Assembly (NCBI GenBank): GCA_963842085.1
Contig: CAWJET010000001.1
Span: 1,632,001 to 1,696,000, forward strand
Direction: 5' to 3'
From: an uncultured delta proteobacterium
GTDB lineage: Bacteria; Desulfobacterota; Binatia; Binatales; Binataceae
Length of the DNA stretch: 64,000 nucleotides
Under the pieces are notes generated by a model. It ran no database searches. It saw nothing but the letters and a program-made list of their open reading frames with translations, and was not told where the DNA came from. Every line of letters starts with the position of its first letter. Positions within the stretch are counted from its first letter, which is position 1. The translations under genes were made by a program, and so were the position numbers. Positions 6,875-35,654 of this stretch are shown piece after piece.

Positions 6875-7037
6875 TCGTTTAGACTCTTGCCGTTAACCTG
6901 TCAGAGCGAGTCAAGGATTTGCATCCATCGCTGGAGTGTGCGCCCGTCCCAAATGTAAACGCCTCGGGATAAGCCACTTGAACCTAATTTAATCTGAATA
7001 GCAGAACTTCGCTTTTTAGTCGAGCCTGTGTACTCGC

Positions 7038-8120
7038 TCATAAGTAGCGTTGCAAGCCGCGGCGCTCGAGTTCTTCCGTGACGCGGCGGAGGTGTGGTGA
7101 CATCTCGCGGTGCGCCACTAGGATCGCGTCTCCCGCGTCGACGACGATCAGATCGCGCACGCCGAACAACACCATCAGGCGCGAATCCGAATGCGCCAGC
7201 ACGCGCTCGGAATCGAGCGCGATCGCTTTGCCGCGAAGCACGTTGCCGCCGGTTTTGCCAACCGCGCCCCACAGCCCATCCCACGATCCCACGTCATGCC
7301 ATGAGAATCGCGCGCGCACGCCTAGCACGTTGGTGCTTTTCTCCATTATCACGCGATCGAACGAATCGAAGCGCAGCCGCCGATAGGCGCGCGCGAGTTT
7401 CGTCCGCGGAGTCAGCGCAAGGCGTTCGGCGGCTATCCCGAGCGCCGGACAATGCTCGGCCAATTCCCGCGCTAGCATCCGCGTCGACACCACGAACATC
7501 GAGGCATTCCACAAGTAGCGCCCGCTGCGCACCATCCGGCGCGCCAGCGCGAGCGCCGGTTTCTCCACGAACTTTTCGATTCGGAATCCGGCACCGACCT
7601 TGGGACCAATCTTCTGGTAGCCGTAGCCGGATTCGGGCCGGGTCGGAGTAATCCCGATCGCGACGATAGATTCGTGCGTCGCGGCGAGACGGATCGCTTC
7701 GGCAAGCGTGCGGCGATATTTGGCGGGTGTCGCGATGTAATGATCGGCGGCCACCGCGGCGATGACTCCGTTGCCCAGTCTGCGCTTGATAATCGCGGCG
7801 CCGTAAGCGATTGCGACCGCGGTGCCTCGGGCGGCAGGTTCAACGATCAAGTTATGCGCCGGAATCAGGCCACGCAGCGCCGGCCGAAACGGCGCCTGGT
7901 GCACCGCGGCGGCCAGTACAAAAATTCGCTCGCGCGGGATGAGCGGCACATGACGCTCGATCGTATCCGCAAGCAGGCTGGTCTTACCGTCAATCGAAAA
8001 GAGCGGCTTGGGCCGCGACTCGCGACTCGCAGGCCAAAAGCGCGTGCCACGGCCGCCTGCGATAATCAGCACCGAGGCGCGCCCGGCCGCGGAAGTTCGA
8101 GCCATCGGATCAGGTAGCAC
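7038..8120 (-). CDS. manC: Mannose-1-phosphate guanylyltransferase
   Basis: IIAGGRGTRFWPASRESRPKP, EPAARGTA, ADH, GYGY, FVEKP, WNASMF, WHDVGSW. Confidence 0.93.
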   Translation of the reverse strand: MLPDPMARTSAAGRASVLIIAGGRGTRFWPASRESRPKPLFSIDGKTSLLADTIERHVPLIPRERIFVLAAAVHQAPFRPALRGLIPAHNLIVEPAARGTAVAIAYGAAIIKRRLGNGVIAAVAADHYIATPAKYRRTLAEAIRLAATHESIVAIGITPTRPESGYGYQKIGPKVGAGFRIEKFVEKPALALARRMVRSGRYLWNASMFVVSTRMLARELAEHCPALGIAAERLALTPRTKLARAYRRLRFDSFDRVIMEKSTNVLGVRARFSWHDVGSWDGLWGAVGKTGGNVLRGKAIALDSERVLAHSDSRLMVLFGVRDLIVVDAGDAILVAHREMSPHLRRVTEELERRGLQRYL

Positions 8121-8449
8121 CTTCGCGGAGTTTGCCGCCGAACAGCGCTCGAGTTTCGGCCAATGCCTGTTCGCCGGTCGCTTCGAAGCGCGTAAGCAGC
8201 GCGGGCTGGGTATCTGACGCGCTCACGAAGCCCCATCCGTCGGCAAAATTCACATGCACGCCGTCACTGTCGATAACTTCAAAGTGCTTTCTGAAAAAAC
8301 CGATGGGCCAAGCGTGATCGTTTTTTCCCTGCCCGATGCAACGAGGTGCAATAGTCTGGCTCAAGATCGGCCACGAAGTCGGTTGTCGAAATCACTTGCG
8401 ACTGTGCCACAGACGTCGTAATCGCGAAAGACTTGCGAATTCAGCGCAT
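8110..8449 (-). pseudogene. Phosphomannomutase/phosphoglucomutase (manB/algC) with a large internal deletion
   Basis: N-terminus NSQVFRDYDVCGTV (cf. IFREYDIRG) sits within ~150 bp of the C-terminus DGVHVNFADGWGFVSASDTQPALLTRFEA. Confidence 0.8.
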
Positions 8450-8515
8450 CTGTCTCAACCCGCTTGAATCATAACTTAGATTAAGCGAATAAAACAGCCT
8501 ACGTATAACACTAGC

Positions 8516-8613
8516 ATGGGAGGAAACCGATAGAATTTCAAATCAGCAGGTCTCGTTTCAGCCGGGTCCGGCAGTATCAACGGCTTCTGAGCAGGTCAGG
8601 CCACTGCAGGAGC
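8516..8613 (+). pseudogene. Truncated 5' copy of the repeat-helix protein gene at 28735-29211
   Basis: Encodes SNQQVSFQPGPAVSTASEQVRPLQE versus SNEQVSFQPGLAVSTVFEQVRPLQE, with the same upstream ATGGGAGGA. Confidence 0.8.
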
Positions 8614-8628
8614 ATCACCGGCGATGTC

Positions 8629-8826
8629 CTGAAACCCCGGAAAAGAGTGTCAGTTGCTGTCAGTACTCAACGGTTGCGAATCACCATTGCCGATTCGTGG
8701 AATCTTTCCGGTCTTTTCCATGGGAAAATTCGGCCAAAGTGCGCCAGAAGGTCGGCTTTCACAGGTGTTGTGCTGTAGGCTAGTGACGATCACTGACAGC
8801 AACTGACGGTCTTTTCCGGGGTTCAG
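8629..8826. repeat. ~35-bp imperfect inverted repeat (arms 8629-8664 and 8792-8826); candidate origin or element end
   Basis: CTGAAACCCCGGAAAAGAGTGTCAGTTGCTGTCAGT versus reverse complement CTGAACCCCGGAAAAGACCGTCAGTTGCTGTCAGT (2 mismatches, 1 gap). Confidence 0.85.
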
Positions 8827-10489
8827 AAGCAGAGACCAGGGAGACTAGGCGTCTGCCGCGGATATCGGCGCGGCTGAACTGAATGTCGATTCCGACTGCG
8901 CGCAGGTTGCTTGCCATGCGCCGCAGCGCGCTGCCGAGCGCACTCGGCGCCTTGGGCCAGCGCACCGAGCGGCGCACGCCTTCGCTCTTCATGCGGTTGA
9001 GCCGGTCATACAGTTCTGCGACTGTCCCGCTAAAGCCCTCGTTGGCCAGTTCGGCCACCGGTTCGTACAGCAGCGACGACTCAAGTGCCAGGTTGTGTGT
9101 CTCGGTGCGGTTGGACTGGTAGGCAGTCATGGCCTCGCCTGGTTTCATTCCGAGGCTCTCTTCGCACGCCTTTACCCAGAGCGCGAAGTCGGCCATCCGC
9201 GGCGGCTGCTCGAGCGTGACGTTGGGCAGATTCCCAAGTCCGGCCACAACGGCATCGAGCAGGGCGCCGAGGATCCGCGGCCTTACCTCTTCGAATTCGC
9301 GCCAGAACTGCGCCTCGTCGCGGCGCATCTCGGGCTTCATGTCGAGGAACTCCACGATCACCGCGCGATCCAGAAAATCGGGCCGCGCGGCACCCAGGTC
9401 GGGAATCGCATTGAACACAATGGGACGGGTAGCGTCGAAGGTCGCTTCGTCATGATCGCTATAGAGTTCCCGGCCACCGAAACCGCCGCCGGTGGCTAGT
9501 CGGCAAGCTGCGTCGGCGAGTTCCTCTGGCAGGTGGCTCAAGTTATCGAAGCATACGATCCACGAATTCCTTGCCGCCGCGGTCAGATCGCGAACTTCAC
9601 GGGGTACGCCCCGCAGTGCCCCGGTGCGCGGGTCGATCAGCGCGCTCATTATTCTGCACGCGGTCGTCTTGCCAGCTCCCTGCTCACCCTTGGCGACCAG
9701 GATAGGGCAGGGCACGCCCGGACGTAGCGCCGCGACCAGAAAGGCCTTGATCAGCGTCCAGCCCTGGTGGTCGACGTTCAGGAAGCGGCGCAGTTCGTCG
9801 AGACCGCCGCCCCGCTCGGGTGGGGGCAGCGGGCGCGAACCACGTGTCCGATGAAATCTCGGCGGCGGTCGGTCCACTATCCGCCAACCGTCGGCGTCGA
9901 TTTCGATCGCCCGCCAAGCGCGATCGCACAGGTCGAGATAGAGTTTCTGCCGATGATTCGCGACCCGGATATTGATGGGAGACTCCTCGCCGTCAAAAAG
10001 GGCCTTGGCCTCGAACAGGTCCAGCGCGGCGCGGATGGCTTGTGCGCCCGGGCTGTTGCCGGTCTCCCGGTAATAGGTTCGCAACAGGAAGAGTTGGAAC
10101 GGGCGGGAGCGGATCGGGTGATTCTCGAAGTGCCCATCGACCCGAACCGAAGCCCAGCCGTGCTGGTCGGGGTCGTGAAAGAACTCGATTCCAGAATCGA
10201 GCACAAGTCCAATCAGTCTGTCCGCAGCGGACCCGCCGTCGCCGCGCTCCAAGGGCAGCGGAGCGCCGAGCATATGCTCGATCAGGTCGGCTTTTTCGTA
10301 CTTCTCCAGAATCCTGCGCCAGTGTTGCCACGTGAGCGGATCCCCGCGCCTGACCGCTGCGAAGGAGAGTACCGCCTCGGTCGAGACCAGCCGCTCGGGC
10401 TCTTCTGCGACTAGCGGCTCAAGTTCGCGCAGGAACAACAGAGCCAGCTCGACCGCGATGGTGCGGGATGATTCGCCTGCCGCACTCAT
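8780..10489 (-). CDS. Phage/plasmid-type P-loop ATPase (putative replicative helicase)
   Basis: Walker A GEQGAGKTT, Walker B-like IVCFDNLS, LATGGGFGGRELYSD, PRMADF. ATG at 10489 abuts the HNH stop. Confidence 0.8.
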   Translation of the reverse strand: MSAAGESSRTIAVELALLFLRELEPLVAEEPERLVSTEAVLSFAAVRRGDPLTWQHWRRILEKYEKADLIEHMLGAPLPLERGDGGSAADRLIGLVLDSGIEFFHDPDQHGWASVRVDGHFENHPIRSRPFQLFLLRTYYRETGNSPGAQAIRAALDLFEAKALFDGEESPINIRVANHRQKLYLDLCDRAWRAIEIDADGWRIVDRPPPRFHRTRGSRPLPPPERGGGLDELRRFLNVDHQGWTLIKAFLVAALRPGVPCPILVAKGEQGAGKTTACRIMSALIDPRTGALRGVPREVRDLTAAARNSWIVCFDNLSHLPEELADAACRLATGGGFGGRELYSDHDEATFDATRPIVFNAIPDLGAARPDFLDRAVIVEFLDMKPEMRRDEAQFWREFEEVRPRILGALLDAVVAGLGNLPNVTLEQPPRMADFALWVKACEESLGMKPGEAMTAYQSNRTETHNLALESSLLYEPVAELANEGFSGTVAELYDRLNRMKSEGVRRSVRWPKAPSALGSALRRMASNLRAVGIDIQFSRADIRGRRLVSLVSASEPRKRPSVAVSDRH

Positions 10490-10491
10490 CT

Positions 10492-10989
10492 CTAGAATCT
10501 GGGAACCAGCTTTCTGGACTTGGCCCGGTTGCAGCGTCGGCACAGGGTTTGAAGATTCGATTCTTCGGTCTTGCCGCCCTTGCTGACCGGGACAATGTGA
10601 TCCATTTCCAGCAGGATCGCCCTCCGGCACTTTCGACATCGCCCGCCGTCGCGCACCAGCACTGTCGCCCGCATGCTGTCCGGTACGCGACGGTTCGCCA
10701 CGCGGTCCTGCCAGCTCGGCCTTTCCACCGCATCGAAGTCGACGAAGTCTGCGAACGCGCTCAAATCTAAAGGCTCGGTGGCGCCGATCAGACACTCCAA
10801 CTTTACGGGATTGTTGGGCAGGAGATTGTTCATGCGCGCCGAGAGCAGCAGCAGACAGATCAGGTGAGCCTTGCGGGCGTCGGGAAGCTGACGGAAACGG
10901 ACGTCGTTCAACAGATCGTAGGGCAGCCTGATCTCTCTGCGGGTGCGCTCGAACTGGCGGAAATTGTGAAAGCCGAAGAATTCCTGCAT
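10492..10989 (-). CDS. HNH endonuclease with an N-terminal phage replication-initiator-like helical domain
   Basis: VLVRDGGRCRKC...EMDHIVPVSKGG...NLQTLCRRCNRAK; N-terminus IRLPYDLLNDVRFRQLPDARKAHLICLLLL. Confidence 0.88.
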   Translation of the reverse strand: MQEFFGFHNFRQFERTRREIRLPYDLLNDVRFRQLPDARKAHLICLLLLSARMNNLLPNNPVKLECLIGATEPLDLSAFADFVDFDAVERPSWQDRVANRRVPDSMRATVLVRDGGRCRKCRRAILLEMDHIVPVSKGGKTEESNLQTLCRRCNRAKSRKLVPRF

Positions 10990-10996
10990 GACTGGT

Positions 10997-11875
10997 CTAT
11001 TGCTGGTTGGCCTCGATGAAGTTGATCTTTACGACCGCGACCGGCGGTTTTCGGTAGGGTTCGAGGTTGACGCCGCGGAGCTCCGGCACAGCAGCGTAAT
11101 CGACCGCGCCCTTGCGCGAGCTCTTCAGGACTTCGACGCCACAGCCATAAGTCCGCCGCGCCGTCGCCATGCACCGGAGCATTGCGCGCAGTCTTTGCTC
11201 CTCGGCTGCTGCGTTCTCCAGCCGGAGCCTGACTTCACGGTAACGCAGCGCGGCGTGACGCCATTTTGGCTCCGCGCTCAGATCCAGTTCCTCGTTGGCC
11301 AATTCGGGCCAGCGGTTTTCCTGCACCAGCTGCCAGAACGCGGCCTCTGCCTCTACCAGACGCTTCGCGTATTCCCGGTCGGGGCGTATTTCGACCAAGA
11401 CTCCGTCGGTCCCGTGGAAGGACCAGTAATGCGCCTGCTCTGCTCCGGAGACCTTCAGTTGATGCTGTAGTTGCGCATAGTACTGGGAGGGGATGCGACC
11501 TTGCTGTGCTGATAAACGATCTCCGAATCTGAGCGGGCACTTAATCTCCAGCAGTATGGAACCGTCGAAGCTGAGACCATCCAACGACGCCCGCATCCAC
11601 TCGAACTCCCCGTGGACCAGACACAGTGGCTCCATCTGGATTCCTGTTTGTCGCTCGTACGCCTTACGCGCGAAGCGCTCCATTTCGCGACCGCGTCGCG
11701 CTGCTGGACCCGCCGCAGCTTCCTGCATCAGCCCGGTTTTTATCGACCACAGCATTCTCGGGGTCTTGAACGCAGTCTCGCCCATGATCACCGGAGCGTC
11801 GCTGGCTCCAATCCCCTGCGTGCGCCAACGATGCCACTCGGGGGTGTTCTGATGCAGCGGCTCAATCCGGGGCAT
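10997..11875 (-). CDS. YqaJ-like viral recombinase / lambda exonuclease family
   Basis: QNTPEWHRWRTQGIGASDA, ASLDG, LEIKCP, YYAQLQHQL. Confidence 0.93.
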   Translation of the reverse strand: MPRIEPLHQNTPEWHRWRTQGIGASDAPVIMGETAFKTPRMLWSIKTGLMQEAAAGPAARRGREMERFARKAYERQTGIQMEPLCLVHGEFEWMRASLDGLSFDGSILLEIKCPLRFGDRLSAQQGRIPSQYYAQLQHQLKVSGAEQAHYWSFHGTDGVLVEIRPDREYAKRLVEAEAAFWQLVQENRWPELANEELDLSAEPKWRHAALRYREVRLRLENAAAEEQRLRAMLRCMATARRTYGCGVEVLKSSRKGAVDYAAVPELRGVNLEPYRKPPVAVVKINFIEANQQ

Positions 11876-12971
11876 GAACCGTCTCCTGATTGCCGCGTTT
11901 GGCCAGTTTGCGATTGAGCACTTCGACCGCGCGCCGGTAGGTCGTTTCGGTCATTTCGCCCAGTGAAGCGACCTTGTAGTAGGCCAGCACCCGTTCGAGA
12001 TCAGTATTGGTGTCGTTGATCAGTTGCTCGAGTTCGCGAACCTCTTCGGCATTGATCGGGCGAGGGGAATTGGGCGTGGCGCAGCGACCATCCGCCCGTT
12101 CGTCTTCCGGGTCGTCGCCGGTGGCCAACAGAAACGATTGCAGCAGCGCGTACTTCAACGCCCCAGTCATCGCCTTGTAGGGCGCCTTGTCGCCCGGATC
12201 GAGTCCCTGGCCCGCGACCTTGGCGATCACTTCTTCGCCGCTGTCGACGTCGGCGAAGGTGTAGGCCATCACGACCCGCGCCATACGCGTGGTCTCGCCG
12301 CGACCCGTCGCCGACTCGTATTCGATATTCTCGAGGCACGGGATCACGACCACGCCCAGCTCGGAGAGGAGGTCGCCGACCGAGCCGGCGATGTCGGCGG
12401 CGGTAACGTAACTGTAGTTGAAACGCTCGTTGTGACCGCGCTTCTGGACGTAGCCGATGCGGCGGCGAACTTCGGCGAGCTTCTGCCGGAGGTTCAGCCG
12501 CACCGGATCTTCGGGAGCGGCGCCGTTGAAAGTCGAGGCGCTCGTCTCGACGGCAGCGGGTGCTTCCGCCGGGCGCGCGTCGGGCTTTGCAGTCACGACC
12601 TGCAACGCTTGCTGCTTACTCCTGCTGCTTCGATTCTTTTTCAAGAGCCGCTTGGCGCCGCTTCTTTTTCCGTTCGCCTGCCCTTCCTTCAGCGAAGCCT
12701 CGAGCAGCACCTCGAGCTCGGTCTTCTCCCGCTCCGCCAGATGCTCGACCGCGATCGGCTTCGTCTCGCCCTTGTCCGCTAGCTGATAGACCTTTCCTTC
12801 TTCGTCCACGTAAATTCCCTCCTGTTGATTGATGCTCGTTACCGGTCGGCCGAGCAGTATATGGACTTCTTCGTGGTTTGCTGTACTGACCGGAAACCAC
12901 TTTTTTGGTTCGGTTCCGCTTTCGAGGAGCACACAAAGAAATCGGTCGCGATAGTCCAAGCTAGCCTTCAT
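11862..12971 (-). CDS. ERF-family single-strand annealing protein with a ~150-aa N-terminal extension
   Basis: VQKRGHNERFNYSY, GQGLDPGDKAPYKAMTGALKYALLQSFLLATGDDPE (ERF signature). Confidence 0.92.
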   Translation of the reverse strand: MKASLDYRDRFLCVLLESGTEPKKWFPVSTANHEEVHILLGRPVTSINQQEGIYVDEEGKVYQLADKGETKPIAVEHLAEREKTELEVLLEASLKEGQANGKRSGAKRLLKKNRSSRSKQQALQVVTAKPDARPAEAPAAVETSASTFNGAAPEDPVRLNLRQKLAEVRRRIGYVQKRGHNERFNYSYVTAADIAGSVGDLLSELGVVVIPCLENIEYESATGRGETTRMARVVMAYTFADVDSGEEVIAKVAGQGLDPGDKAPYKAMTGALKYALLQSFLLATGDDPEDERADGRCATPNSPRPINAEEVRELEQLINDTNTDLERVLAYYKVASLGEMTETTYRRAVEVLNRKLAKRGNQETVHAPD

Positions 12972-13076
12972 TTCGCCTCCGGCGTGATGCGCCTTCTTCC
13001 TCGACGATTGGCGTCGTTTCCGAATCCTGTTCTTACGCTCTGCTATATTACTAGAAGGTACACTACGAAGGAATAC

Positions 13077-13670
13077 CTAAAAGGAATATGGTGCAACGAA
13101 GATCGGCGGAGGGGAGAACGTGGCCAAGGTCAGGCTGTGGGGTTTCCGTTGCGAGCGGTGCGGGCACAAATGGTTGCCGCGAGAAACCGGCAAAGAACCG
13201 CGAGTTTGTCCCCGCTGTAAATCTCCGTACTGGAACCGGCCCAGGAGGAATCCGAAACCGGCCGGCAGATGATACTCTGTTGGATGAACAACGGTCACTG
13301 CGCTTCGGCCGTTGTTTCGCATCTCCCGATGCGCCCCCCTCGAATCTGCGTTTGGTTCGTGCTCCTTCCCGCCTTTCAACGAAGCCTCCAGTAGCACCTC
13401 GAGTTCGGTTTTCTCCCTCCCCGGAAGATGCTCGACCGCTATTGGCTTCGTCTCGCCCTTGTCCGCCAGCTGAAAACCGTTCCCTTCTTCGTCCACGTAA
13501 ATTCCCTCCTGCAGATTGACGCTCGTGACCGGTCGGCCGTGGAGCGTTTGGGCTTCGGCGTAGTCCGCCTTGCGGACCGGAAGCCACTTCGGCGGCGCCC
13601 CGGTCGTACCGTCCTTTTCTTCGACGACATAGAGAAAATCGTCCCTGTACTCGAGGGTTGTCTTCATCAT
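13077..13670 (-). CDS. Hypothetical protein, paralog of the ERF N-terminal extension
   Basis: First ~100 aa align with ERF residues 1-97 (GRPVTSxNxQEGIYVDEEG..QLADKGETKPIAVEHL..REKTELEVLLEASLK). GGAGG RBS. The 3' part overlaps the Zn-ribbon gene in antisense. Confidence 0.75.
   Translation of the reverse strand: MMKTTLEYRDDFLYVVEEKDGTTGAPPKWLPVRKADYAEAQTLHGRPVTSVNLQEGIYVDEEGNGFQLADKGETKPIAVEHLPGREKTELEVLLEASLKGGKEHEPNADSRGAHREMRNNGRSAVTVVHPTEYHLPAGFGFLLGRFQYGDLQRGQTRGSLPVSRGNHLCPHRSQRKPHSLTLATFSPPPIFVAPYSF
13120..13272 (+). CDS. 50-aa zinc-ribbon protein (missing from the ORF track)
   Basis: GTG start after GGAG; MAKVRLWGFRCERCGHKWLPRETGKEPRVCPRCKSPYWNRPRRNPKPAGR, with two CxxC motifs. Confidence 0.8.
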   Translation: MAKVRLWGFRCERCGHKWLPRETGKEPRVCPRCKSPYWNRPRRNPKPAGR

Positions 13671-14054
13671 GCTGCCTCCATTGCGAATTTATTGAACGCT
13701 GGCTGTTCTCGGCGGCGCCAACTCTAATTACTCAAAGTTCAGCTGAGTTTCTCGTGGCTCTTCTTTAGTCTTGTCTGAACCATCGCACCGATTTGCGCCG
13801 GGTAATGTTAAATATATAGGACATTCGGCTTTGAATCAAGTGGCGATTTACGGTAGATTTCATGAATGAATTTGGGTATGAGCAACTGTGGCGCACGCCA
13901 CGGCGATATTAATTGTCCTATGTATGCTACTATTTCAGTTTCTGGAAGTTCAAAGCAGCATTTGAGTATCATCGAAGTGATGCCTAAACTGCCCTCCATG
14001 GGTCGGAAGAAAATCTCTGCTCGACCTACAGGTAAACGGGCGGAGAAGCCCAAT

Positions 14055-14264
14055 ATGGTGGCTGCCGCTGTCGAGCTCGCTGGCGGCGCGGCCGCAGTGG
14101 GTAAGCTATGCGGAGTTCGCCGGCAGTCCGTCTATTGGTGGATTAAAGAATGGAAGGTGGAGAGGCTGGTCGATGCCCTGAAGCTATCGCGTGCTTCAGG
14201 AATCCCAGTTGAAAAGTTTGCTGGCGAGATCGTCGACGCGGAACAGCTCAAGGAAATAAAATGA
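14055..14264 (+). CDS. Cro/YdaS-like HTH transcriptional regulator
   Basis: AVELAGGAAAVGKLCGVRRQSVYWW...LSRASGIPVEKF. Alternative starts at 13980 and 13998. Confidence 0.8.
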   Translation: MVAAAVELAGGAAAVGKLCGVRRQSVYWWIKEWKVERLVDALKLSRASGIPVEKFAGEIVDAEQLKEIK

Positions 14265-14394
14265 CCATTGCCCGCCGATTCCTCGCCAGGTCACTTTGCT
14301 GACAAGCGTTCCAGGACCTTCGGTCGCAACTGTTACGTATATCCGTGTAGTAACACGTCGTGGTCGCGTGCGGTTGTGGATCTAGAGGCCTTAG

Positions 14395-15571
14395 GGAACC
14401 TCTGCACAGGTCGTCATACAGCGGCAGTTCGATATAGTAATGAGAGCTAAGAGCAGGAACGGCAGCAGCGCGTTGGGGTTGATCGTTGCTGGGAAGCGAT
14501 TAGGAGCATTGGGGAGCTGCTCGATCTTCTTCACAACCCGCAACTGGTCCCGACCGGGATCAACCGATACCGGACCCGGTAGAGATTGGCCAGCGCGAAC
14601 ATGGTCTGCGCCCGAGCCAGATTCTTGGCCAGCCCGCGATATCTCACCTTGCTGAAGCCCCACAACTGCTTGAGCACGCGGAAGGCATGCTCGCCGCAAG
14701 CGCGGGTGCGCGAACGCACCCGGTTGATCATCCGCCAGCGCTCGCTCAACGGGTGCCGGGGGGTAGGACGGCGATTGATCCGATAATGTATTCCCCGCGA
14801 CTCAAGGAACCTGCGGTCGTCTTCTTTCCAATACGCCTGGTCGCCGAACACCTCGCTTTCGTACCCGTGCAGCAGCTCCGGCAGCTGGGTGACATCGGCG
14901 ACCGCGGCGTCGGTCGCTCTTACGCTGTGGACGATGCCGCGCTTGTCTGCACCGATGTGCAGTTTCATCCCGAAGTGCCAGTTCCTGCCCTTGCGAGTCT
15001 GCTTCATCTCAGGGTCGCGCGTCCCACTGGCGTTCTTGGTGGGAACTGGGCGCTGCGATGATGGTCGCGTCCACAATCGTTCCCGAGCGCAGCAACAGGC
15101 CGCGGGCCTCGAGCAGGCCGCCGATCGCGTCGAAGATCGCTTTGGTAAGGTCGTGCCTTTCCAGCAGATGGCGAAAGCGCAGAATGGTGGTCTCATCCGG
15201 CACCACGTCGTCGCCCAGCTCCACCCGCGCAAACCGGCGCATCGACTCGCTGTCGTAGATCGCGTCCTCGGCCTGCGGGTCGGAGAGATTGAACCACTGC
15301 TGCAGGAAGTAGATGCGCAGCATCTTCTCCAGCCCCAGCGGCTGGCGGCCGTTGCCCGCTGTGGGATAGTGCGGCTCGATCAGCCGCAGCAGCCGCGCCC
15401 AAGGGATCACCGCGTCCATCTCGGCCAGAAACCGCTCGCGCCGGGTCACCTTGCCCTTCGCACTCCACGCCACCGAAGCAAACGTCTGCTGGCTACCCAT
15501 CACCGCACCTCCGCATCCGTCGATCGTCTGGTTCCTTTGTACACCAATCGATCAACTTGTGCAGAGGTTCC
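14395..15571 (-). mobile_element. IS5-family (IS5 subgroup) insertion sequence, 1177 bp
   Basis: 14-bp perfect TIR GGAACCTCTGCACA; TTAG duplicated at 14391-14394 and 15572-15575. Confidence 0.95.
14531..15503 (-). pseudogene. IS5 transposase split by a 1-nt insertion
   Basis: TRRERFLAEMDAVIPW...VDATIIAAPSS / TKNASGTRDPEM...HFGMKLHIG...VRYRGLAKN. Extra C in TCCCACC near 15040. Confidence 0.9.
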
Positions 15572-15658
15572 TTAGCGGCGAGTCCTTTCCATGTAAGGGT
15601 TCGGGCAAAAGCGATTGCCAGGCGCACGGCGGTGGTCCATCGCCGCTCGTGCGGAACG

Positions 15659-15757
15659 TTAAGAGCGCCCTCGAGGAGCATCCGATCTTCCCTTGCGCTC
15701 GAAAATGACTTCCAGATAGTCGCCTTCGGCGTCGCATCAGACCTTTACGTCTTTGCG
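15659..15757 (-). pseudogene. DUF2283-like fragment
   Basis: KDVKV*CDAEGDYLEVIFERK resembles KVWYDxEGDYLEV, with Trp changed to a stop. Confidence 0.55.
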
Positions 15758-15773
15758 CTAGATACCAGCCTCT

Positions 15774-16079
15774 TCAGGATTTCGCTCGTAGCCGGCGCTT
15801 CCAATAATCCGGCCGGCGGCGCAGGTGCATGACGGCGATCACAGACAGTTCCTCCGGACCGGACTGATACAAAATCGCAAACGGGAAGCGCTGGACGAGC
15901 CGGCGCCGGATCGTTCCCGTAAACAAGCTCCCGGCTTCGGGATTGGCGACGATCTGCGCCAACGTGTGCTCCACTTGCCGGATGAAATCCCCACCCAGGC
16001 CGCTGGCGCGCGCTTCGTAAAATTTGGTTGATTCGATGAGTTCACGTTCGCACAAGGGGTGAAAAACGACCCTGGTCAC
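15774..16079 (-). CDS. RelE/ParE-family toxin
   Basis: VFHPLCERELIES..FYE...RRRLVQRFPFAILY...VIAVMHLRRRPDYW; GTGA overlap with the antitoxin. Confidence 0.9.
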   Translation of the reverse strand: MTRVVFHPLCERELIESTKFYEARASGLGGDFIRQVEHTLAQIVANPEAGSLFTGTIRRRLVQRFPFAILYQSGPEELSVIAVMHLRRRPDYWKRRLRAKS

Positions 16080-16309
16080 CGAAGCGCCGCACGCGCCTTC
16101 CTGAGCGCTTTCTCGGCAGGAATTCCCTTGAGCCTGCCGCTGGCGATCTCTTCCGCGCGCCGCTCTGCCTCGGCAGCCCATAATCTTTCGGCATCCGGCT
16201 CGGCAGGTTCCTCCTCCAGGCTTGCGAGCAATCGTTCGGCCAGCCGCGCGCGCGAACGAGCGGGAAGCCTCATGGCCTGATCTTCAAGCTTCTTGAGTAC
16301 AGCGGGCAT
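16076..16309 (-). CDS. Putative addiction module antitoxin (TIGR02574-like)
   Basis: LPARSRARLAERLLASL...WAAEAERRAEEIASG...IPAE. Confidence 0.9.
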   Translation of the reverse strand: MPAVLKKLEDQAMRLPARSRARLAERLLASLEEEPAEPDAERLWAAEAERRAEEIASGRLKGIPAEKALRKARAALR

Positions 16310-16686
16310 GGTTCACCTCCTCGTTAATTGTTCGGGTTGATCATACCAGGCTTCGATGCGGCTGCCGCACATCGAACCCCATCTTGCAACTGCTTGCCGG
16401 ACCGCCTTACCGGCGGTTCGCTCGCCATATTCATGCTGACGTTTTTCGCAACCTTCTTGGAGAGGTCGCGCGTCCGCATGATCTCCGCGCGAATCTCGCC
16501 GGCCGAGACCCCCCCATGCCGCTGGCGGGCCGCGCCGAGCCATGTCGGCGCGGTGCAGGTCGCCGCCATAACGTGGATCAACCGGCCGACTCCGAACAGC
16601 CCTCAGCAAACCTCGCGCGCGGCCGCATGCCGAGAATTGATTTGTTGGAGAATGGCGCACGATCACAACTTGATTTCAGCAGCCAA

Positions 16687-17361
16687 CTATATTCTTCCCC
16701 CTCGCCAAATCACCTTACCCACCAAGATTCGATCAACCTCCGTCGCCTCCAGTTCCTCCGAAATTCCCGAACCGGTAACCACGAAACCCCGCTTGAGCCC
16801 AACTTGAACGCGTCTTATGGCCAGCCCCGTCGGTGCGGAAAATACATACAACCCCTCACCACGCGGCAATCTCTTGCCCGCGGACCGGTCCACCAATAAC
16901 AAATCCTGCGTTCTGATTTCGGTTGGAAGATCTCGGTCGGCCTCCAAAAGGAAGAGCTGCTCGGGTTCGCGGATACCGAGCGCCCGTTCGAGCCACGAGC
17001 GGCTGAACGGAAGAAGTGCGCGAATCTGCTCCATGTGCAGCGCCGCATGGATGTCGCGCAGTTCGACCATGGCCACATCGGCGAACGTCGCGCCCGGCGG
17101 CTGTCCGGCGGCTCTCATTTCACCCTGGCCCGTTGCCAGCCAGTCGACCGACACGTTGGCGGCGCGCGCGAGCTTAATCAGAATGTCGCTCCGCGGAGGA
17201 AGTTCTTGACGCGCATATTGCTGCAGGGTTGACTCCGGAACCCCCGAGGCCTTGGCTAGCCGGTACCGGCTGCCGAACTCCTTGACGAGCAGCGCGAAAC
17301 GAGCGGCAAACGAGCCGCGCTTTTGTTTGCCCCGACTACGACGTCGGCCGTTGTTTGACAT
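16687..17361 (-). CDS. CI-like repressor (XRE HTH plus degenerate S24 domain)
   Basis: LAKASGVPESTLQQY...LARAANVSVDWLATGQGEM; C-terminus DLLLVDR..GLYVF..VGKVIW. Confidence 0.85.
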   Translation of the reverse strand: MSNNGRRRSRGKQKRGSFAARFALLVKEFGSRYRLAKASGVPESTLQQYARQELPPRSDILIKLARAANVSVDWLATGQGEMRAAGQPPGATFADVAMVELRDIHAALHMEQIRALLPFSRSWLERALGIREPEQLFLLEADRDLPTEIRTQDLLLVDRSAGKRLPRGEGLYVFSAPTGLAIRRVQVGLKRGFVVTGSGISEELEATEVDRILVGKVIWRGGRI

Positions 17362-17393
17362 AGCTACGATATCCGTGGTACTTTGAGTAAAGA

Positions 17394-17612
17394 ATGGCCC
17401 GACTCTTCAAATCGCTGCAAAAGACTTCAAGGGAGGCAACGCAAGTGGCAACGCTACGACAAATTGGAAAGACCCGCAATCCGGCGAATTTCGAAAAGGT
17501 CGCAGAGAAGCTTCAGGCTGCCGTCATCGACGCGGTTGCCATTTTGCGCGCGGCCCTGTTCGACGGTTTGCCGTTGACACCGATCCACGCCGCCGTGACC
17601 GTCCGTCTTTAG
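17394..17612 (+). CDS. Hypothetical protein divergent from the CI-like gene
   Basis: ORF only; no recognisable motif. Confidence 0.3.
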   Translation: MARLFKSLQKTSREATQVATLRQIGKTRNPANFEKVAEKLQAAVIDAVAILRAALFDGLPLTPIHAAVTVRL

Positions 17613-17716
17613 AGTCTCGTTGCGGCACTGGACCTGAAGCCATCAGGCGGAAAGTCGGCTGCCGACGAAAGGCCCGATTCTGTCATCGATGAACACCGCA
17701 GAGAAGGTACCGACCC

Positions 17717-18700
17717 ATGGTCGTAGGTGAACCGCCAACAGGGGAAAGTCAATCTCCGCTAACCAAGGACGCCGATACTTCGCCAGCACCGCGGCGCACC
17801 TCCGTCAAGCAAATCGAGGCCAACCGGAGAAACGCGCTTCACTCAACCGGACCGACCACGCCTGAGGGTAAGCGGGCCTCGCGACTCAACGCCCTGACGC
17901 ACGGCTTGCGGGCGAAGAAGGTGATAATTCCCGGGGAGGAAAATCCCGCAGAGCTGGAAGCGTTATTAAGAGAACTCTTTGAGGATTGGAAGCCTGAGGG
18001 TCACACGGAGCGCCACCTGGTCGAGCAAATTGGACTGGCGGAATGGCGGCTGCGGCGGGTGCACCGCGCCGAACTCGGCGAAACTCGAACGCAAATGTCG
18101 AGCACAATGGTGAGCAATGCCAAAGCCGAGATCGATCACGCGTTTAGGCATTTCCCCGAGCGCGTGCCGCAAATCTTGAGAAAAAGCAGCGCAGGGATCC
18201 CTTATCTGCGGGACGCAATCGACGAGGCCGTCTACGAACTCGAAAAGGAGGGTACAGTTTCCGAGGATAGCTGCGACCGGCTCGAGGAAGTATTTGGAGA
18301 CGAACTACAAAGTCCCGCCTCGGCGCTCAGGTTTTGGTTTCTTGGGGAAATCCCGGAGGTGTTAAAGGAGGCTTTGGATAGTGTCGGCGAGCCAACGGCT
18401 ACGGCCGACAAGGGCGATTCCGACACGAAGGAAATTGCACGCAATTACTTGGGGACGATGCTCAAGGATCTGGATCGCCAGGAACGAAAGCTGCGTAAAC
18501 AGGAAAGAATCGCTCTTGAGATCGCCCGACAACGGCTGAGCATTCCCCAAGGCCTCGAACTCGAACGCATCCAGCGCTACGAGACCGCAATTAAGCGCGA
18601 AATGCGCCGTGACATCGATCAACTCGAGCGTCTGCAGCGCCGGCGGATAGGTGAGCCGCTGCCGCCGACCGTGAACGTGAACGTGTCGAAAGACGAATGA
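17717..18700 (+). CDS. Conserved hypothetical protein of the 'ANRRNAxxSTGP-TxEGK' family
   Basis: KQIEANRRNALHSTGPTTPEGKRASRLNALTHGL...WRLRR...LERIQRYE. Confidence 0.85.
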   Translation: MVVGEPPTGESQSPLTKDADTSPAPRRTSVKQIEANRRNALHSTGPTTPEGKRASRLNALTHGLRAKKVIIPGEENPAELEALLRELFEDWKPEGHTERHLVEQIGLAEWRLRRVHRAELGETRTQMSSTMVSNAKAEIDHAFRHFPERVPQILRKSSAGIPYLRDAIDEAVYELEKEGTVSEDSCDRLEEVFGDELQSPASALRFWFLGEIPEVLKEALDSVGEPTATADKGDSDTKEIARNYLGTMLKDLDRQERKLRKQERIALEIARQRLSIPQGLELERIQRYETAIKREMRRDIDQLERLQRRRIGEPLPPTVNVNVSKDE

Positions 18701-19077
18701 GTCTGCGCTCGCACAACCTGCTGGCACACGAGAAATCGAAACCTCCGTCGCATAGGCCGACTGATGGGCGTGCCGAAGAAGGGTTCGGTTGCGCCGAAGA
18801 TAACAGAACGTTGTTTGATTTAGATGCCGACGACGAGCGCAAAGGGCCGGCGAAGAATTCTCTGCTTTTTGCCGAACGAACCCATTTCCAATGCAAATGA
18901 GCGAGCCCTAGCCAAAGTGGCGCAGGATATTGTCGCTATACGAGAAGACAGCCAGCTTGTTTGTGCGCCAACGCGCAGCGGCAAGGGACCGTTGGCAGGC
19001 CGTCCTCCGTTTGAGCGGCCCGAACCTGGCTTGAAACTTTTCTGGCAACCTGCAATCATCTTACTGGCAATCTTACC

Positions 19078-19332
19078 ATGACTCAGACGACGAAATTGTC
19101 TACCAAGGGCCAGGTCGTTCTTCCCAAATCGCTCAGGACGTCCCGTCGATGGAAGCCCGGCACTGAATTCATCATCCAGGACCGGGAGGAGGGCATTTTG
19201 CTCAAGCCGAAAACCGGGGGCGCGTCGCGGACTTGGGAGTCGATCATCGGCTGCCTCTCTTATGCTGGTTCGCGCAAGAGCGTAAGGGAAATGGATGAGG
19301 CGGTGGCGGCTGAGGCACGGTCGCGCAAATGA
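19078..19332 (+). CDS. AbrB/MazE/SpoVT-family antitoxin (VapB)
   Basis: TKLSTKGQVVLPKSLR...GILLKP. Confidence 0.92.
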   Translation: MTQTTKLSTKGQVVLPKSLRTSRRWKPGTEFIIQDREEGILLKPKTGGASRTWESIIGCLSYAGSRKSVREMDEAVAAEARSRK

Positions 19333-19724
19333 TGACGGCGCTCGATACGAATGTGCTTGTCCGCATCATAACCAACGACGATAGAGCTCAGGCGACTCGG
19401 GCCGCGCGGTTTCTGCGTGAGCAGGAGAGAGTTTTTGTCTCAAAGACAGTTCTACTCGAACTGGAGTGGGTTCTACGGAGCGCCTATAAGGTCGGGCCAA
19501 ATGCTATTATTTCCGCATTCCGCGGCGTCCTGAGTGTGTTCAATGTCGAAGTTGAAGACGAAGCGGTAGCGAGGCAAGCCATCGAATGGTACGAGAAGGG
19601 CATGGACTTTGCGGACGCCCTGCACGTCGCTTCCGCCGGTCGCAAGCGAAAGTTCGCTACATTTGACAATCGGTTGCGTCAGAAAGTTCGGCGTCTCGGG
19701 CTGGGTGAATTAGCAGAAATCTGA
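19329..19724 (+). CDS. VapC PIN-domain toxin
   Basis: LDTNVLVR, ELEWVL, DFADALH, TFD; ATGA overlap with the antitoxin. Confidence 0.93.
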   Translation: MMTALDTNVLVRIITNDDRAQATRAARFLREQERVFVSKTVLLELEWVLRSAYKVGPNAIISAFRGVLSVFNVEVEDEAVARQAIEWYEKGMDFADALHVASAGRKRKFATFDNRLRQKVRRLGLGELAEI

Positions 19725-28734: not shown

Positions 28735-29211
28735 TTACTGGGGTAAACCTTCTGGCTTTCGCTCGAAACTCTGCGCGAGCGTCGAGAATTCTTCGCGAAG
28801 GGTCTTGGCCGGCTCAAATGCAGTAGCAAGATGCGCGAGTCGATCCTGAAGCGCAGCCGCCGGCTCGAGCGCGGCGACAAGTTGGCTCAAACTTTCGCCG
28901 AACGCCGCGGAAAGCTGGTCAAGCTCGCGATCCAGATCCTGCAGGGGCGCGAACTGCTTCAGGACCTGTCGAAGCTGGTCCTGGAAATTGTGCATCGGCT
29001 CGAGCACCTTGGCCAGCTCTTTGATCTTCACCTCGAACTCGCGGAGAGGCTCAAACACATTTGCCAGCACGGAAAGCTGGTGCATCGGTTCCAGAATGAC
29101 CGCGATCTGAGCGAGCTGTTCTTGCAGTGGCCTGACCTGCTCGAAAACCGTCGATACCGCCAGACCCGGCTGAAACGAAACCTGCTCATTTGACATTCCA
29201 ATTCCTCCCAT
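28735..29211 (-). CDS. Amphipathic 17-aa-repeat helical protein, copy 1
   Basis: VFEQVRPLQEQLAQIAV / VFEPLREFEVKIKELAK / VLEPMHNFQDQLRQVLK / ALEPAAALQDRLAHLAT / AFEPAKTLREEFSTLAQ. Confidence 0.82.
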   Translation of the reverse strand: MGGIGMSNEQVSFQPGLAVSTVFEQVRPLQEQLAQIAVILEPMHQLSVLANVFEPLREFEVKIKELAKVLEPMHNFQDQLRQVLKQFAPLQDLDRELDQLSAAFGESLSQLVAALEPAAALQDRLAHLATAFEPAKTLREEFSTLAQSFERKPEGLPQ

Positions 29212-34280: not shown

Positions 34281-35654
34281 ATGATGCATGGAAGGATGCA
34301 GACGATGACTGAGGGCAACGATGGGATCTCGTTGGCGCATGGAGTGGCGCCGAAGTTGAGGGCGGTCGCTCCTCAGCTTTCGCTCGTGGCCGCGATGTTG
34401 TTGTTCGCTGCGTTCGTCGGGGGAACAACCGGCACCAGCTACGCGAAAAAGCCACCGAAGAGGGCTCTGCTTGACACGGTCGTCGTCTCAAATTACGGGA
34501 GTGCGTTCGCCGGCAGCATCGAGACATTTAGCGCGGGTGCACCCCGCAACTCGAAGCCTTTCTTGCGCATCACGGGCACGAACACGCTCTTGGGTATTGG
34601 TACTGGGCCGACTGGCGACGCGCAGAGCTCACTCGACGGCGACATAGTGGTGGGGGTGCCTCTCGTCCTTCTCCCCATCGGTTTCCCCAACGGGTTCGTT
34701 GAGGTCTTCTCCCCCGGCTCGAACGGTAATTCAGAACCAAAAAGCCTGATTGGCGATCCGACAGGATTCGACGTTACGGGCGTCAACCTTCCCCAGGGCG
34801 TTGGATTTGAAAACCCCTTCGACGGGGTTCATCCGTTCGGGGTCGATATATTAGCGGTCGCGAACACCCTTCCACTGGTGACTGCGCCAGATCTCCACAT
34901 CCCGGAACTTGGGTTATGCGCTCCGAATGCGCCCGGCTTCAGCTTGGGCACGATTACCGAGTATGACCACGAGACGTTGGCTCCGGGCCTCAATGTCATT
35001 CCCCCTTTCAACGACAGCCCGGTGAATGGCGGCGCGAACCCGGCCACGATCGGCGGATGCGACACTTATCTTGCCGGTCCGGTGGGCCTTGCGTTCGACG
35101 CCAAAGGCTTTCTGTATGCCGTGAACGAGGGTTTCGTGCCGACCACCTCGTACGTTACCGTGTATGAGCCTGGCGCGCATGGCAACGCGATACCAATAGC
35201 CATCGTAGGTACGGGTGCTCTCGTCAATCCGTTGTATGTCGCAGTCGCCTCAGGTCCAATAATGTTAGTGGACGGTGTCCCGCTCCCGCAGGACACTATC
35301 TACGTGACCGACGTGGGCGACAACAGCATCAAAATCTTCGCTCCTTTCGACCCGGCAACTTGCTTTACGCCGGCGCTTCCATTTGGCTGTTTCGGCACCC
35401 AGACCGGCACGATCAGCGGCGGCAGCACGAAACTCAAGCGGCCCGAAGGAATTGCGCTCAGCGCCGACGGCAATCTGTACGTGGTAAACAACAATGGAAA
35501 TTCGCTGGCGGAGTTTGCAGATATCGCAGCAGATCTCGGAGGCGGCGACATCGCGCCGACGTTTATGCTCCCCGGGGTCATCGGCGGGAAGGCCCCGGCA
35601 ATGAACTTCCCGGTCGGCGTTGCCCTGCCGGCGTTCCCGCCGCCGCCGCTTTGA
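34281..35654 (+). CDS. Secreted NHL-repeat / beta-propeller protein
   Basis: GPVGLAFDAKGFLYAVN, IYVTDVGDNSIKIF, RPEGIALSADGNLYVVN. Confidence 0.8.
   Translation: MMHGRMQTMTEGNDGISLAHGVAPKLRAVAPQLSLVAAMLLFAAFVGGTTGTSYAKKPPKRALLDTVVVSNYGSAFAGSIETFSAGAPRNSKPFLRITGTNTLLGIGTGPTGDAQSSLDGDIVVGVPLVLLPIGFPNGFVEVFSPGSNGNSEPKSLIGDPTGFDVTGVNLPQGVGFENPFDGVHPFGVDILAVANTLPLVTAPDLHIPELGLCAPNAPGFSLGTITEYDHETLAPGLNVIPPFNDSPVNGGANPATIGGCDTYLAGPVGLAFDAKGFLYAVNEGFVPTTSYVTVYEPGAHGNAIPIAIVGTGALVNPLYVAVASGPIMLVDGVPLPQDTIYVTDVGDNSIKIFAPFDPATCFTPALPFGCFGTQTGTISGGSTKLKRPEGIALSADGNLYVVNNNGNSLAEFADIAADLGGGDIAPTFMLPGVIGGKAPAMNFPVGVALPAFPPPPL

Follow-up and report, generated by a model that had tools for sequence, protein, structure and literature searches.

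A recurrent four-gene cassette with a probable iteron origin in Binataceae genomes, probably the core of phage-derived, integrase-less islands

A four-gene cassette and its copies

The DNA considered here is a stretch of 64,000 nucleotides (nt) from an uncultured delta proteobacterium of the Binataceae (the window; C1:1632001-1696000 of a two-contig genome). It contains a compact cassette of four minus-strand genes, arranged head to tail and followed by an inverted repeat (Table 1; positions are those of the window unless contig C1 or C2 is prefixed). In order, the genes encode an ERF-family protein, a YqaJ-type exonuclease, an HNH nuclease, and a P-loop ATPase. The coordinates bore out the tight layout described in an initial annotation of this DNA. 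The ERF and YqaJ frames overlap by 14 nt, and gaps of 7 and 2 nt separate YqaJ from HNH and HNH from the ATPase. The ATPase start was placed at the ATG 2 bases past the HNH stop, the longest open reading frame (ORF) extending to 10795.

Three of the four proteins fell into known families. The ERF protein matched PF04404 over residues 162 to 300 (E value 7.8e-15, above the cut-off) and phrog_155 (2.1e-32), and it carries an N-terminal extension of ~150 amino acids (aa) that is specific to the family described here. The YqaJ protein matched PF09588 (3e-29) and phrog_434 (3.7e-48), and its D...EIKC stretch was invariant in 23 of 23 copies. The HNH protein matched PF01844 (6.2e-14) and phrog_589 (7.3e-17), with the motif CxxC...DH...N...CxxCN invariant in all 29 copies compared; its N-terminal 90 aa are uncharacterized. 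By these families and motifs, the first two genes are predicted to encode an exonuclease and annealase pair of the Red/RecET/Erf type. Screening with the PADLOC models of defense families gave only generic HNH/restriction endonuclease matches for the HNH protein and none for the other nine proteins.

Table 1. Coordinates of the cassette, its upstream genes, and its copies in the genome
Feature	Position	Strand	Basis or remark
ERF-family single-strand annealing protein	11862-12971	-	369 aa; PF04404
YqaJ/lambda-Exo-type exonuclease	10997-11875	-	292 aa; PF09588
HNH nuclease	10492-10989	-	165 aa; PF01844
Predicted superfamily 3 (SF3) helicase (the ATPase), D5/SaPI-Rep-like (SaPI, Staphylococcus aureus pathogenicity island)	8780-10489	-	569 aa; fold match
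Putative C-terminal specificity domain of the helicase	~9149 down to 8780	-	co-segregation with iteron type
Probable origin and conserved right end	8616-8826	-	iteron arms, spacer, conserved 3' edge
Promoter-like site 5' of ERF	13269-13298	-	consensus match only
Zn-ribbon gene, divergent from ERF	13120-13272	+	PF09723, 8.1e-05, below the curated cut-off
Second ERF N-terminus remnant	13302-13667	-	inside ORF 13077-13670
Cro/YdaS-like helix-turn-helix gene, divergent from the cassette	13866-14264	+	weak HTH_29/YdaS matches, below cut-off
IS5-type transposase, two overlapping ORFs	14531-15503	-	PF05598 (DUF772), 9.5e-22; PF01609 (DDE_Tnp_1), 4.2e-21
CI-like repressor	16687-17361	-	PF07022, 9.9e-08; phrog_4, 1.2e-18
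p327 (327 aa)	17717-18700	+	leftmost gene family recurring beside cassettes
Copy 1	C1:1640783-1644971		window copy
Copy 2	C1:2522349-2526574		stop in ERF
Copy 3	C2:1314922-1319119
Copy 4	C2:1438847-1443201		helicase interrupted, YqaJ end altered

The genome holds four copies of the cassette, which were 85 to 89% identical at the DNA level over a homology limited to ~4.2 to 4.4 kb. On the right, homology stopped ~20 nt past the outer arm of the inverted repeat in all four; on the left, similarity faded inside the first ~100 nt of ERF. A scan of species genomes added 34 further loci, all in metagenome-assembled genomes (MAGs) recorded as Binataceae, delta proteobacterium, or proteobacterium, and gene order and spacing were the same in these loci wherever the genes were present. 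The four genes and the repeat are one discrete unit of ~4.3 kb. The gene order recognized in the initial annotation is thus conserved in relatives, without integrase or virion genes near the copies examined. Among the matches listed, which were those of 1 kb or more, at least 16 of 47 genomes of the genus carried the cassette, with 1 to 5 copies each; another 192 weaker matches in the genus are outside these counts. A protein search gave a match in 7 of 18 genus genomes and, elsewhere in the class, in 1 of 12; the element family occurs largely within a single genus of the Binataceae. Most copies keep all four frames open, with frameshifts in some loci besides the damaged copies 2 and 4. Copy 4 and locus L016 of another genome (the same place as L030) share nearby host genes in a rearranged order.

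A solo outer arm was also present at C1:1569338-1569606 (locus L059), together with 230 nt of the outside flank of the window copy at 87% identity. This arm is cut exactly at its inner edge by a 1.36-kb repeat that is found also at C1:1576755 and C1:1580708.

The initial annotation had recognized no integrase, terminase, capsid, primase, or relaxase gene in the window; we likewise obtained no match there to PF00589, PF00239, PF05065, PF03237, or PF04860, primase and relaxase families not being among those searched. The whole genome gave 14 matches to PF00589 and 9 to PF00239, the nearest to any of its copies lying 135 kb and 171 kb away, respectively. It gave no match to the capsid and portal families PF05065 and PF04860, and one to PF03237, 138 kb from copy 3. 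In five other genomes, the contigs were free of PF00589 matches for 50 kb around each of 15 copies; the nearest match was ~58 kb away, and two of these copies lie at contig ends. When 22 recombinase ORFs and one TerL ORF of the genome were used as tblastn queries, one of the 34 loci was matched, by a 51-aa fragment. A BLAST family of small terminases lay beside 6 of 38 copies, and two of its members were confirmed by Pfam or PHROGs (PF03592, 5.6e-25 and 2.7e-22). Lone small-terminase genes, at L056:2934-3476 and L033:633-1112, stood 1 to 6.5 kb upstream of cassettes with no large terminase nearby.

A distant relative came from another family of the class. At L021:11935-15415, a helicase 41% identical to that of the cassette is accompanied by a 130-aa ORF and by a tyrosine integrase 341 nt downstream, and the pair may represent an integrase-bearing ancestor form of the cassette. 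As a lead to a lost integrase, L021 was dropped, because its integrase and neighboring genes had no match in the 38 loci.

The helicase and its probable origin

The fourth protein could not be placed by sequence families. It had no Pfam match above the cut-off, including to any Pfam SF3 family, and no PHROG or NCBIfam match, and sequence searches of the PDB returned P-loop-level matches only, whether the query was the protein alone or a profile. An AlphaFold model built from 40 sequences reached a mean predicted local distance difference test (pLDDT) value of 84.7. With this model, Foldseek found the PrimPol of African swine fever virus (8iqi, 4.7e-08) and the SaPI5 primase-helicase (7ola, 1.5e-07), and the top matches further included monkeypox virus E5/vaccinia D5 and the C-terminal region of NrS-1. 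A protein atlas lookup gave the same SF3 helicase lead, and the Walker motifs GEQGxGK and VCFDNLS were invariant in 23 helicase copies. By its predicted fold, the ATPase is an SF3 replicative helicase of the D5/SaPI-Rep type without a primase domain; neither a Pfam scan nor the model revealed such a domain in the 569-aa protein.

Relatives of the ATPase amounted to 20,773 cluster representatives at E values of 1e-3 or below, and if the helicase reading holds, a replicative function would be indicated for a family of this size that has no Pfam model above cut-off. Many of these relatives are ~300 aa longer at the N terminus. Nine long ones were scanned, with PolA found in two (one of which also had Prim-Pol) and DUF3854 in one. 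Among the gene families that neighbor the cassettes, the only hint of a primase was a sub-threshold RepB_primase match (0.0059) in one family.

The initial annotation had described a 35-bp inverted repeat at 8629-8826. The repeat is real, though its arms measured 32 nt: the outer (8633-8664) and inner (8792-8823) arms are 94% complementary and stand 127 nt apart, around a spacer at 8665-8791. The inner arm lies within the last codons of the helicase gene, and ~17 conserved bases follow the outer arm. Folded as single-stranded DNA, the repeat had a z score of -7.1, and none of 200 shuffled sequences folded as well. Of the 35 loci in which the helicase 3' end is present, 33 have an inverted repeat in this position.

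Each arm is a tandem of two or three iterons of 9 to 10 nt, and the two arms have opposite orientations. Two types of iteron occur: the T type, GATCGTCAGT together with variants bearing TGTCAGT or CTTCAGT, and the C type, ATCGTCAGC. Save for 5 isolated matches, iteron arrays were confined to this one site across 38 loci. The first two iterons were identical between the arms in 21 of 26 loci, one variant serving both arms, and arm identity within a copy averaged 0.955 over 18 nt (n = 26). The corresponding identity between copies (0.33) and its permutation result were not used, since the arms are in different register between loci. The GC content of the spacer was 0.51 in the window copy, with a median of 0.52 for spacers versus 0.62 for the cassette.

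The helicase gene varies with the iterons. Over its nt 1 to 1340, copies of the T and C types were as alike between as within types (identity of 0.82 to 0.91), whereas from nt 1341 on (~370 nt), identity was 0.67 to 0.68 between types and 0.81 to 0.86 within them (16 T-type and 8 C-type copies). Because the drop between types occurs only past nt 1340, the C-terminal domain of the helicase and the iterons travel together. In the model, this end of the protein consists of helices and a beta-hairpin. For the SaPI Rep protein, PMC9371898 describes a winged-helix C-terminal domain that reads iterons directly downstream of rep, and an origin whose AT-rich center is flanked on either side by at least two iterons, the two sets pointing in opposite directions.

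The repeat is most likely the helicase's own origin, to which the C-terminal domain would bind, and it is better read as such than as an element terminus or as a target of the HNH enzyme. If the preferred reading of the element given below holds, the T and C pairs of domain and iterons could be swapped to study how SF3 helicases recognize origins. A transcription terminator was also considered for the repeat and rejected: its 32-nt arms are 127 nt apart, there is no T run, and the 4 terminator-like sites all lie elsewhere.

Selection, exchange, and the surroundings of the copies

Two findings had been named in the initial annotation as speaking against its proposals, namely, cassettes always embedded in complete prophages and a lack of purifying selection. 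No copy that was examined sits in a complete prophage, and median pairwise ratios of nonsynonymous to synonymous substitution (dN/dS, NG86 method) fell between 0.13 and 0.23 for all four genes: 0.23 for ERF (22 intact copies), 0.16 for YqaJ (23), 0.13 for HNH (29), and 0.17 for the helicase (23). Pairs of paralogs within the genome itself gave values of 0.09 to 0.23.

A maximum-likelihood tree was made from the YqaJ-to-helicase stretch of 29 copies, nine truncated, off-register, very divergent, or degenerate loci being left out. The tree grouped copies by genome: all four of this genome (support of 100/100), all four of one MAG (99/98), and all three of another (100/100). In one MAG, several consecutive 300-nt windows were 100% identical to a sister copy, in cassettes that were otherwise 84 to 97% identical, and in sliding windows the ends of some copies were closer to copies in other genomes. 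Judging by these sequence patterns, gene conversion and modular exchange are active between copies. Given the tracts of 100% identity, the clustering by genome can be explained by gene conversion, fresh duplication being the alternative. The exchange tracts could be a product of the cassette's own recombination pair, and host RecA could also make them.

Downstream of the cassette, the flanks of different loci have nearly nothing in common. The 1 to 5 kb upstream, in contrast, form a mosaic of recurrent families (p327/F6, F12, F15, CI-like, Cro-like, and Zn ribbon), each present in 4 to 7 loci and 65 to 85% alike between loci, and most of them without a Pfam or PHROG match. Profile annotation of the flanks was restricted to samples. 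The Zn-ribbon, Cro-like, and CI-like genes noted initially were all found, the first two through matches below cut-off. The Zn-ribbon gene recurs 5' of ERF in copy 4 and several other loci, allelic variants of the Cro-like gene lie upstream of most copies, and the CI-like repressor is 78% identical to its counterpart beside copy 3. The second ERF remnant is 61% identical to the ERF of the window copy and 70% to that of copy 3. Between the Cro-like and CI-like genes, the IS5-type transposase marks an insertion into the regulatory region of the element.

Homology to other loci ends ~100 nt past the stop of p327. The model of this protein was all-helical (pLDDT, 74.8) and had no fold match at an E value of 0.001 or below, and the sequence had no Pfam, PHROG, NCBIfam, or PADLOC match. 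The idea that p327 is a hidden recombinase or primase was dropped. The recurrent part of the element spans ~5 to 10 kb. The mosaic region with its Cro-, CI-, and p327-like genes is taken to be the variable regulatory part of the element, which exceeds the span of 8629-14264 first assigned to it.

The wider setting is an island of ~22 kb (~8400-30800) that has no synteny with five relatives and contains insertion sequence (IS) and toxin-antitoxin genes. No tRNA or tmRNA attachment site was found in the window, and there was no Rfam match in 8000-19500. The initial annotation had pointed to scrambled genes nearby, among them a manC inversion and a manB deletion, as possible work of the cassette. 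The manB deletion, of ~1 kb relative to five genus genomes, was confirmed. The scrambled genes sit in the island with the IS and toxin-antitoxin genes, and nothing ties them to the cassette enzymes. At the manB deletion (8302-8306), a C-terminal fragment at 8110-8364 (PF00408) and ~95 nt of the 5' side remain. On the manC side, just past the manC 3' end, one contig in each of four public sequencing runs joined 6920 to 7175 on opposite strands, which could reflect either a small inversion or an assembly variant of the hairpin type.

Several other features were noted in these surroundings. Toxin-antitoxin-like pairs occur at 15774-16309 (an Unstab_antitox gene and a partner without a Pfam match) and at 19102-19724 (a MazE-type antitoxin and a PIN-domain protein). 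A dispersed repeat of ~100 nt, with no Rfam match, was found at 8516-8614, 29117-29211, C1:1659532, C2:1257915, and C2:1261383, at 79 to 86% identity. To the left of copy 3 on C2, an element of ~150 to 190 nt (L057:2015-2206) has many copies in nearly every genus genome at 77 to 90% identity and is possibly a miniature inverted-repeat transposable element. Upstream of copy 2, L056:5458-6418 holds fragments of a type I methylase (HsdM_N, N6_Mtase) and a toxin-antitoxin pair of the BrnT/CopG type. NHL-repeat proteins of ~650 to 1300 aa lie in the flanks of 6 loci, including L035, L040, L045, and L056, on either side, and a window ORF at 34281-35654 (457 aa) also had an NHL match.

Nature of the element and comparison with known systems

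The cassette has the look of an unusual phage-derived hitchhiker's core rather than that of a new kind of system. We assign a probability of about 60% to the reading that it is the core of small, phage-derived, integrated islands without an integrase, of a satellite- or defective-phage-like kind. The layout matches the early operon of a temperate phage or satellite, with a probable private origin at its end; what is unusual here is that integrase and primase are both missing.

A CI/Cro-type switch upstream would release the operon. The C-terminal domain of the helicase would bind the iterons, and the helicase would then melt the spacer and load itself; since no primase is encoded, host primase and polymerase would presumably serve replication. 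YqaJ and ERF would process and anneal ends in a recombination-dependent mode of replication and in exchange with sister copies. The HNH enzyme might nick or cut DNA, either for such replication or for packaging by a helper phage. A replication function had been suggested for the element initially, and an SF3 helicase with matching iterons agrees with it. If our reading holds, an integrase-less, multicopy variant would be added to the world of phage satellites and defective phages, and the question of interest becomes how a replicon that carries recombination genes and lacks an integrase reaches many sites. In literature searches on these points, we found no paper on mobile elements of this uncultured soil phylum.

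A number of observations weigh against the phage-derived island. According to PMC10085698, known satellite families are delimited by an integrase, and none is present at the cassettes; by SatelliteFinder-type criteria, the replication module is there and the integrase at one end is lacking. Beside 32 of the 38 copies there is no small terminase, and the element has no defined left end. No pair of occupied and empty sites, the comparison proposed with the initial annotation, was found between the window flanks and five genus genomes or between copies 2 and 3 and 47 of them. In the relatives, the manC side of the island and its far side map far apart, and around copies 2 and 3 the flanking DNA is itself patchy or repeated. 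That C-terminal domain and iteron type pair up is partly forced, as the inner arm itself codes for the helicase tail. A scan of IMG/VR for close relatives of the helicase yielded a single pattern match, and no relative was confirmed. Genes in the flanks were called by a crude codon-score ORF picker, and for the 34 other loci the search for virion genes in the flanks used one TerL query and protein clustering rather than profiles.

Ten public soil-metagenome runs contain the stretch or a small part of it, and four were compared, in which it is represented by short contigs interrupted at the repeated cassette. No circle junction was found in the contigs of these four runs, a result that is no evidence either way. 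The joints seen in the contigs were mostly small skips, in keeping with sister copies whose spacers are shorter. One backward joint, from 18898 to 14129 with 23 other letters between, occurred in two runs and may stem from a related locus.

The cassette might instead be an undescribed, self-mobile element that needs no recombinase. It would replicate from its own origin by means of the helicase, and it would insert after the HNH enzyme had cut at or near the repeat, YqaJ had resected the ends, and ERF had annealed them to short homologies, with the origin as its fixed end. We consider this unlikely, although several observations would suit it. The right end is the same, in this genome and at other loci, against unrelated downstream flanks, and no recombinase lies near any copy. 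The core alone clusters by genome, which the upstream regulators do not. Partial copies sit beside whole ones, as helicase 3' fragments 0.3 to 1.7 kb downstream at several loci and as the ERF 5' remnant in the window, and the break in the solo outer arm at C1:1569338 falls precisely at its inner edge. Were the self-mobile reading true, the cassette's own machinery would explain the conversion tracts, the neighboring partial copies, and the breakpoints at arm edges.

The boundaries of the cassette argue otherwise. Its left edge is blurred, as the similarity that fades in the first part of ERF continues upstream in some pairs, and no second cluster of iterons beyond chance marks a left end in the loci. 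Both arms of the repeat are at one end and therefore are not terminal repeats. Subfamilies share a further 40 to 50 nt beyond the common right end, which suggests modular exchange and not a fixed terminus. Across 27 loci, we found no flanking direct repeats or target motif beyond chance matches of 9 to 16 nt. Gene conversion alone can yield clustering by genome. Movement by short-homology recombination, as first proposed, thus met with no flanking direct repeat, no empty site, and no contig with a circle or other junction. Nor does the cassette show the marks of a transposon, that is, a transposase, terminal repeats at both ends, and a target-site duplication.

Ordinary decay is, in our view, distinctly unlikely. 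Here, separate temperate phages would have lost their late genes and integrase, and what is left would have no present function as a unit. The early region of temperate phages and their relatives, such as lambda, P22, Rac, and the skin element, usually contains an annealase and an exonuclease, followed by replication genes, under CI/Cro-type control, and the cassette has that same layout. The broken copies and frameshifted loci, the neighborhoods that are junkyards of IS elements, toxin-antitoxin pairs, and gene fragments, and the integrase behind the helicase of L021 all would be expected of remnants. However, if decay were random, more than 25 loci with differing flanks would not all end at one and the same base. 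This shared end, together with purifying selection on all four genes, paralog pairs of the genome included, and the lack of any capsid, portal, or large-terminase remnant near its copies, argues against such decay, as do the four open frames of most copies.

A domesticated host module for repair or replication restart, the other possibility raised in the initial annotation, is very improbable: purifying selection and a possibly long residence (the host genes shared by copy 4 and L016/L030) would fit it, but the cassette is patchily distributed within the genus, occurs in 0 to 5 copies per genome that are often broken, and sits in nonsyntenic islands, and the linked phage-type repressors and private origin would be needless for host repair.

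The cassette resembles three known kinds of system. The closest likeness is to the replication module of SaPIs and other phage-inducible chromosomal islands (PICIs). The SF3 fold is shared (7ola), as are iterons that start from the helicase 3' end, two or three per side in opposite orientation around an A+T-richer center, and a C-terminal domain that varies with the iteron type. A repressor-controlled operon lies upstream, no virion genes were found near the copies examined, and a small terminase stands beside some copies. Unlike a SaPI or PICI, the cassette has no integrase and no primase gene or domain that we could find, its helicase is preceded by the ERF-YqaJ-HNH trio, and it occurs as several diverged copies per genome in an uncultured soil host.

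In P4-like satellites and other integrative elements with D5/primase-helicase genes, too, a D5-type helicase initiates replication of a small integrated element, and L021, the distant relative, has an integrase right behind its helicase. Alpha proteins of the P4 type carry a primase domain, and an integrase delimits the elements; the cassette has neither.

With the lambda Red, RecET, and P22 Erf systems and with yqaJ-yqaK of the skin element, the cassette shares a YqaJ/lambda-Exo-type exonuclease that is translationally coupled to an annealing protein, here through the 14-nt overlap. In the early operon of the skin element of Bacillus subtilis, replication genes follow yqaJ-yqaK, as they do in the cassette. 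The cassette differs from these systems in that the annealase comes first and bears the N-terminal extension and in that an HNH gene is a fixed third member. Its end is formed by a probable origin of its own, and it recurs as an unvarying block of 4.3 kb.

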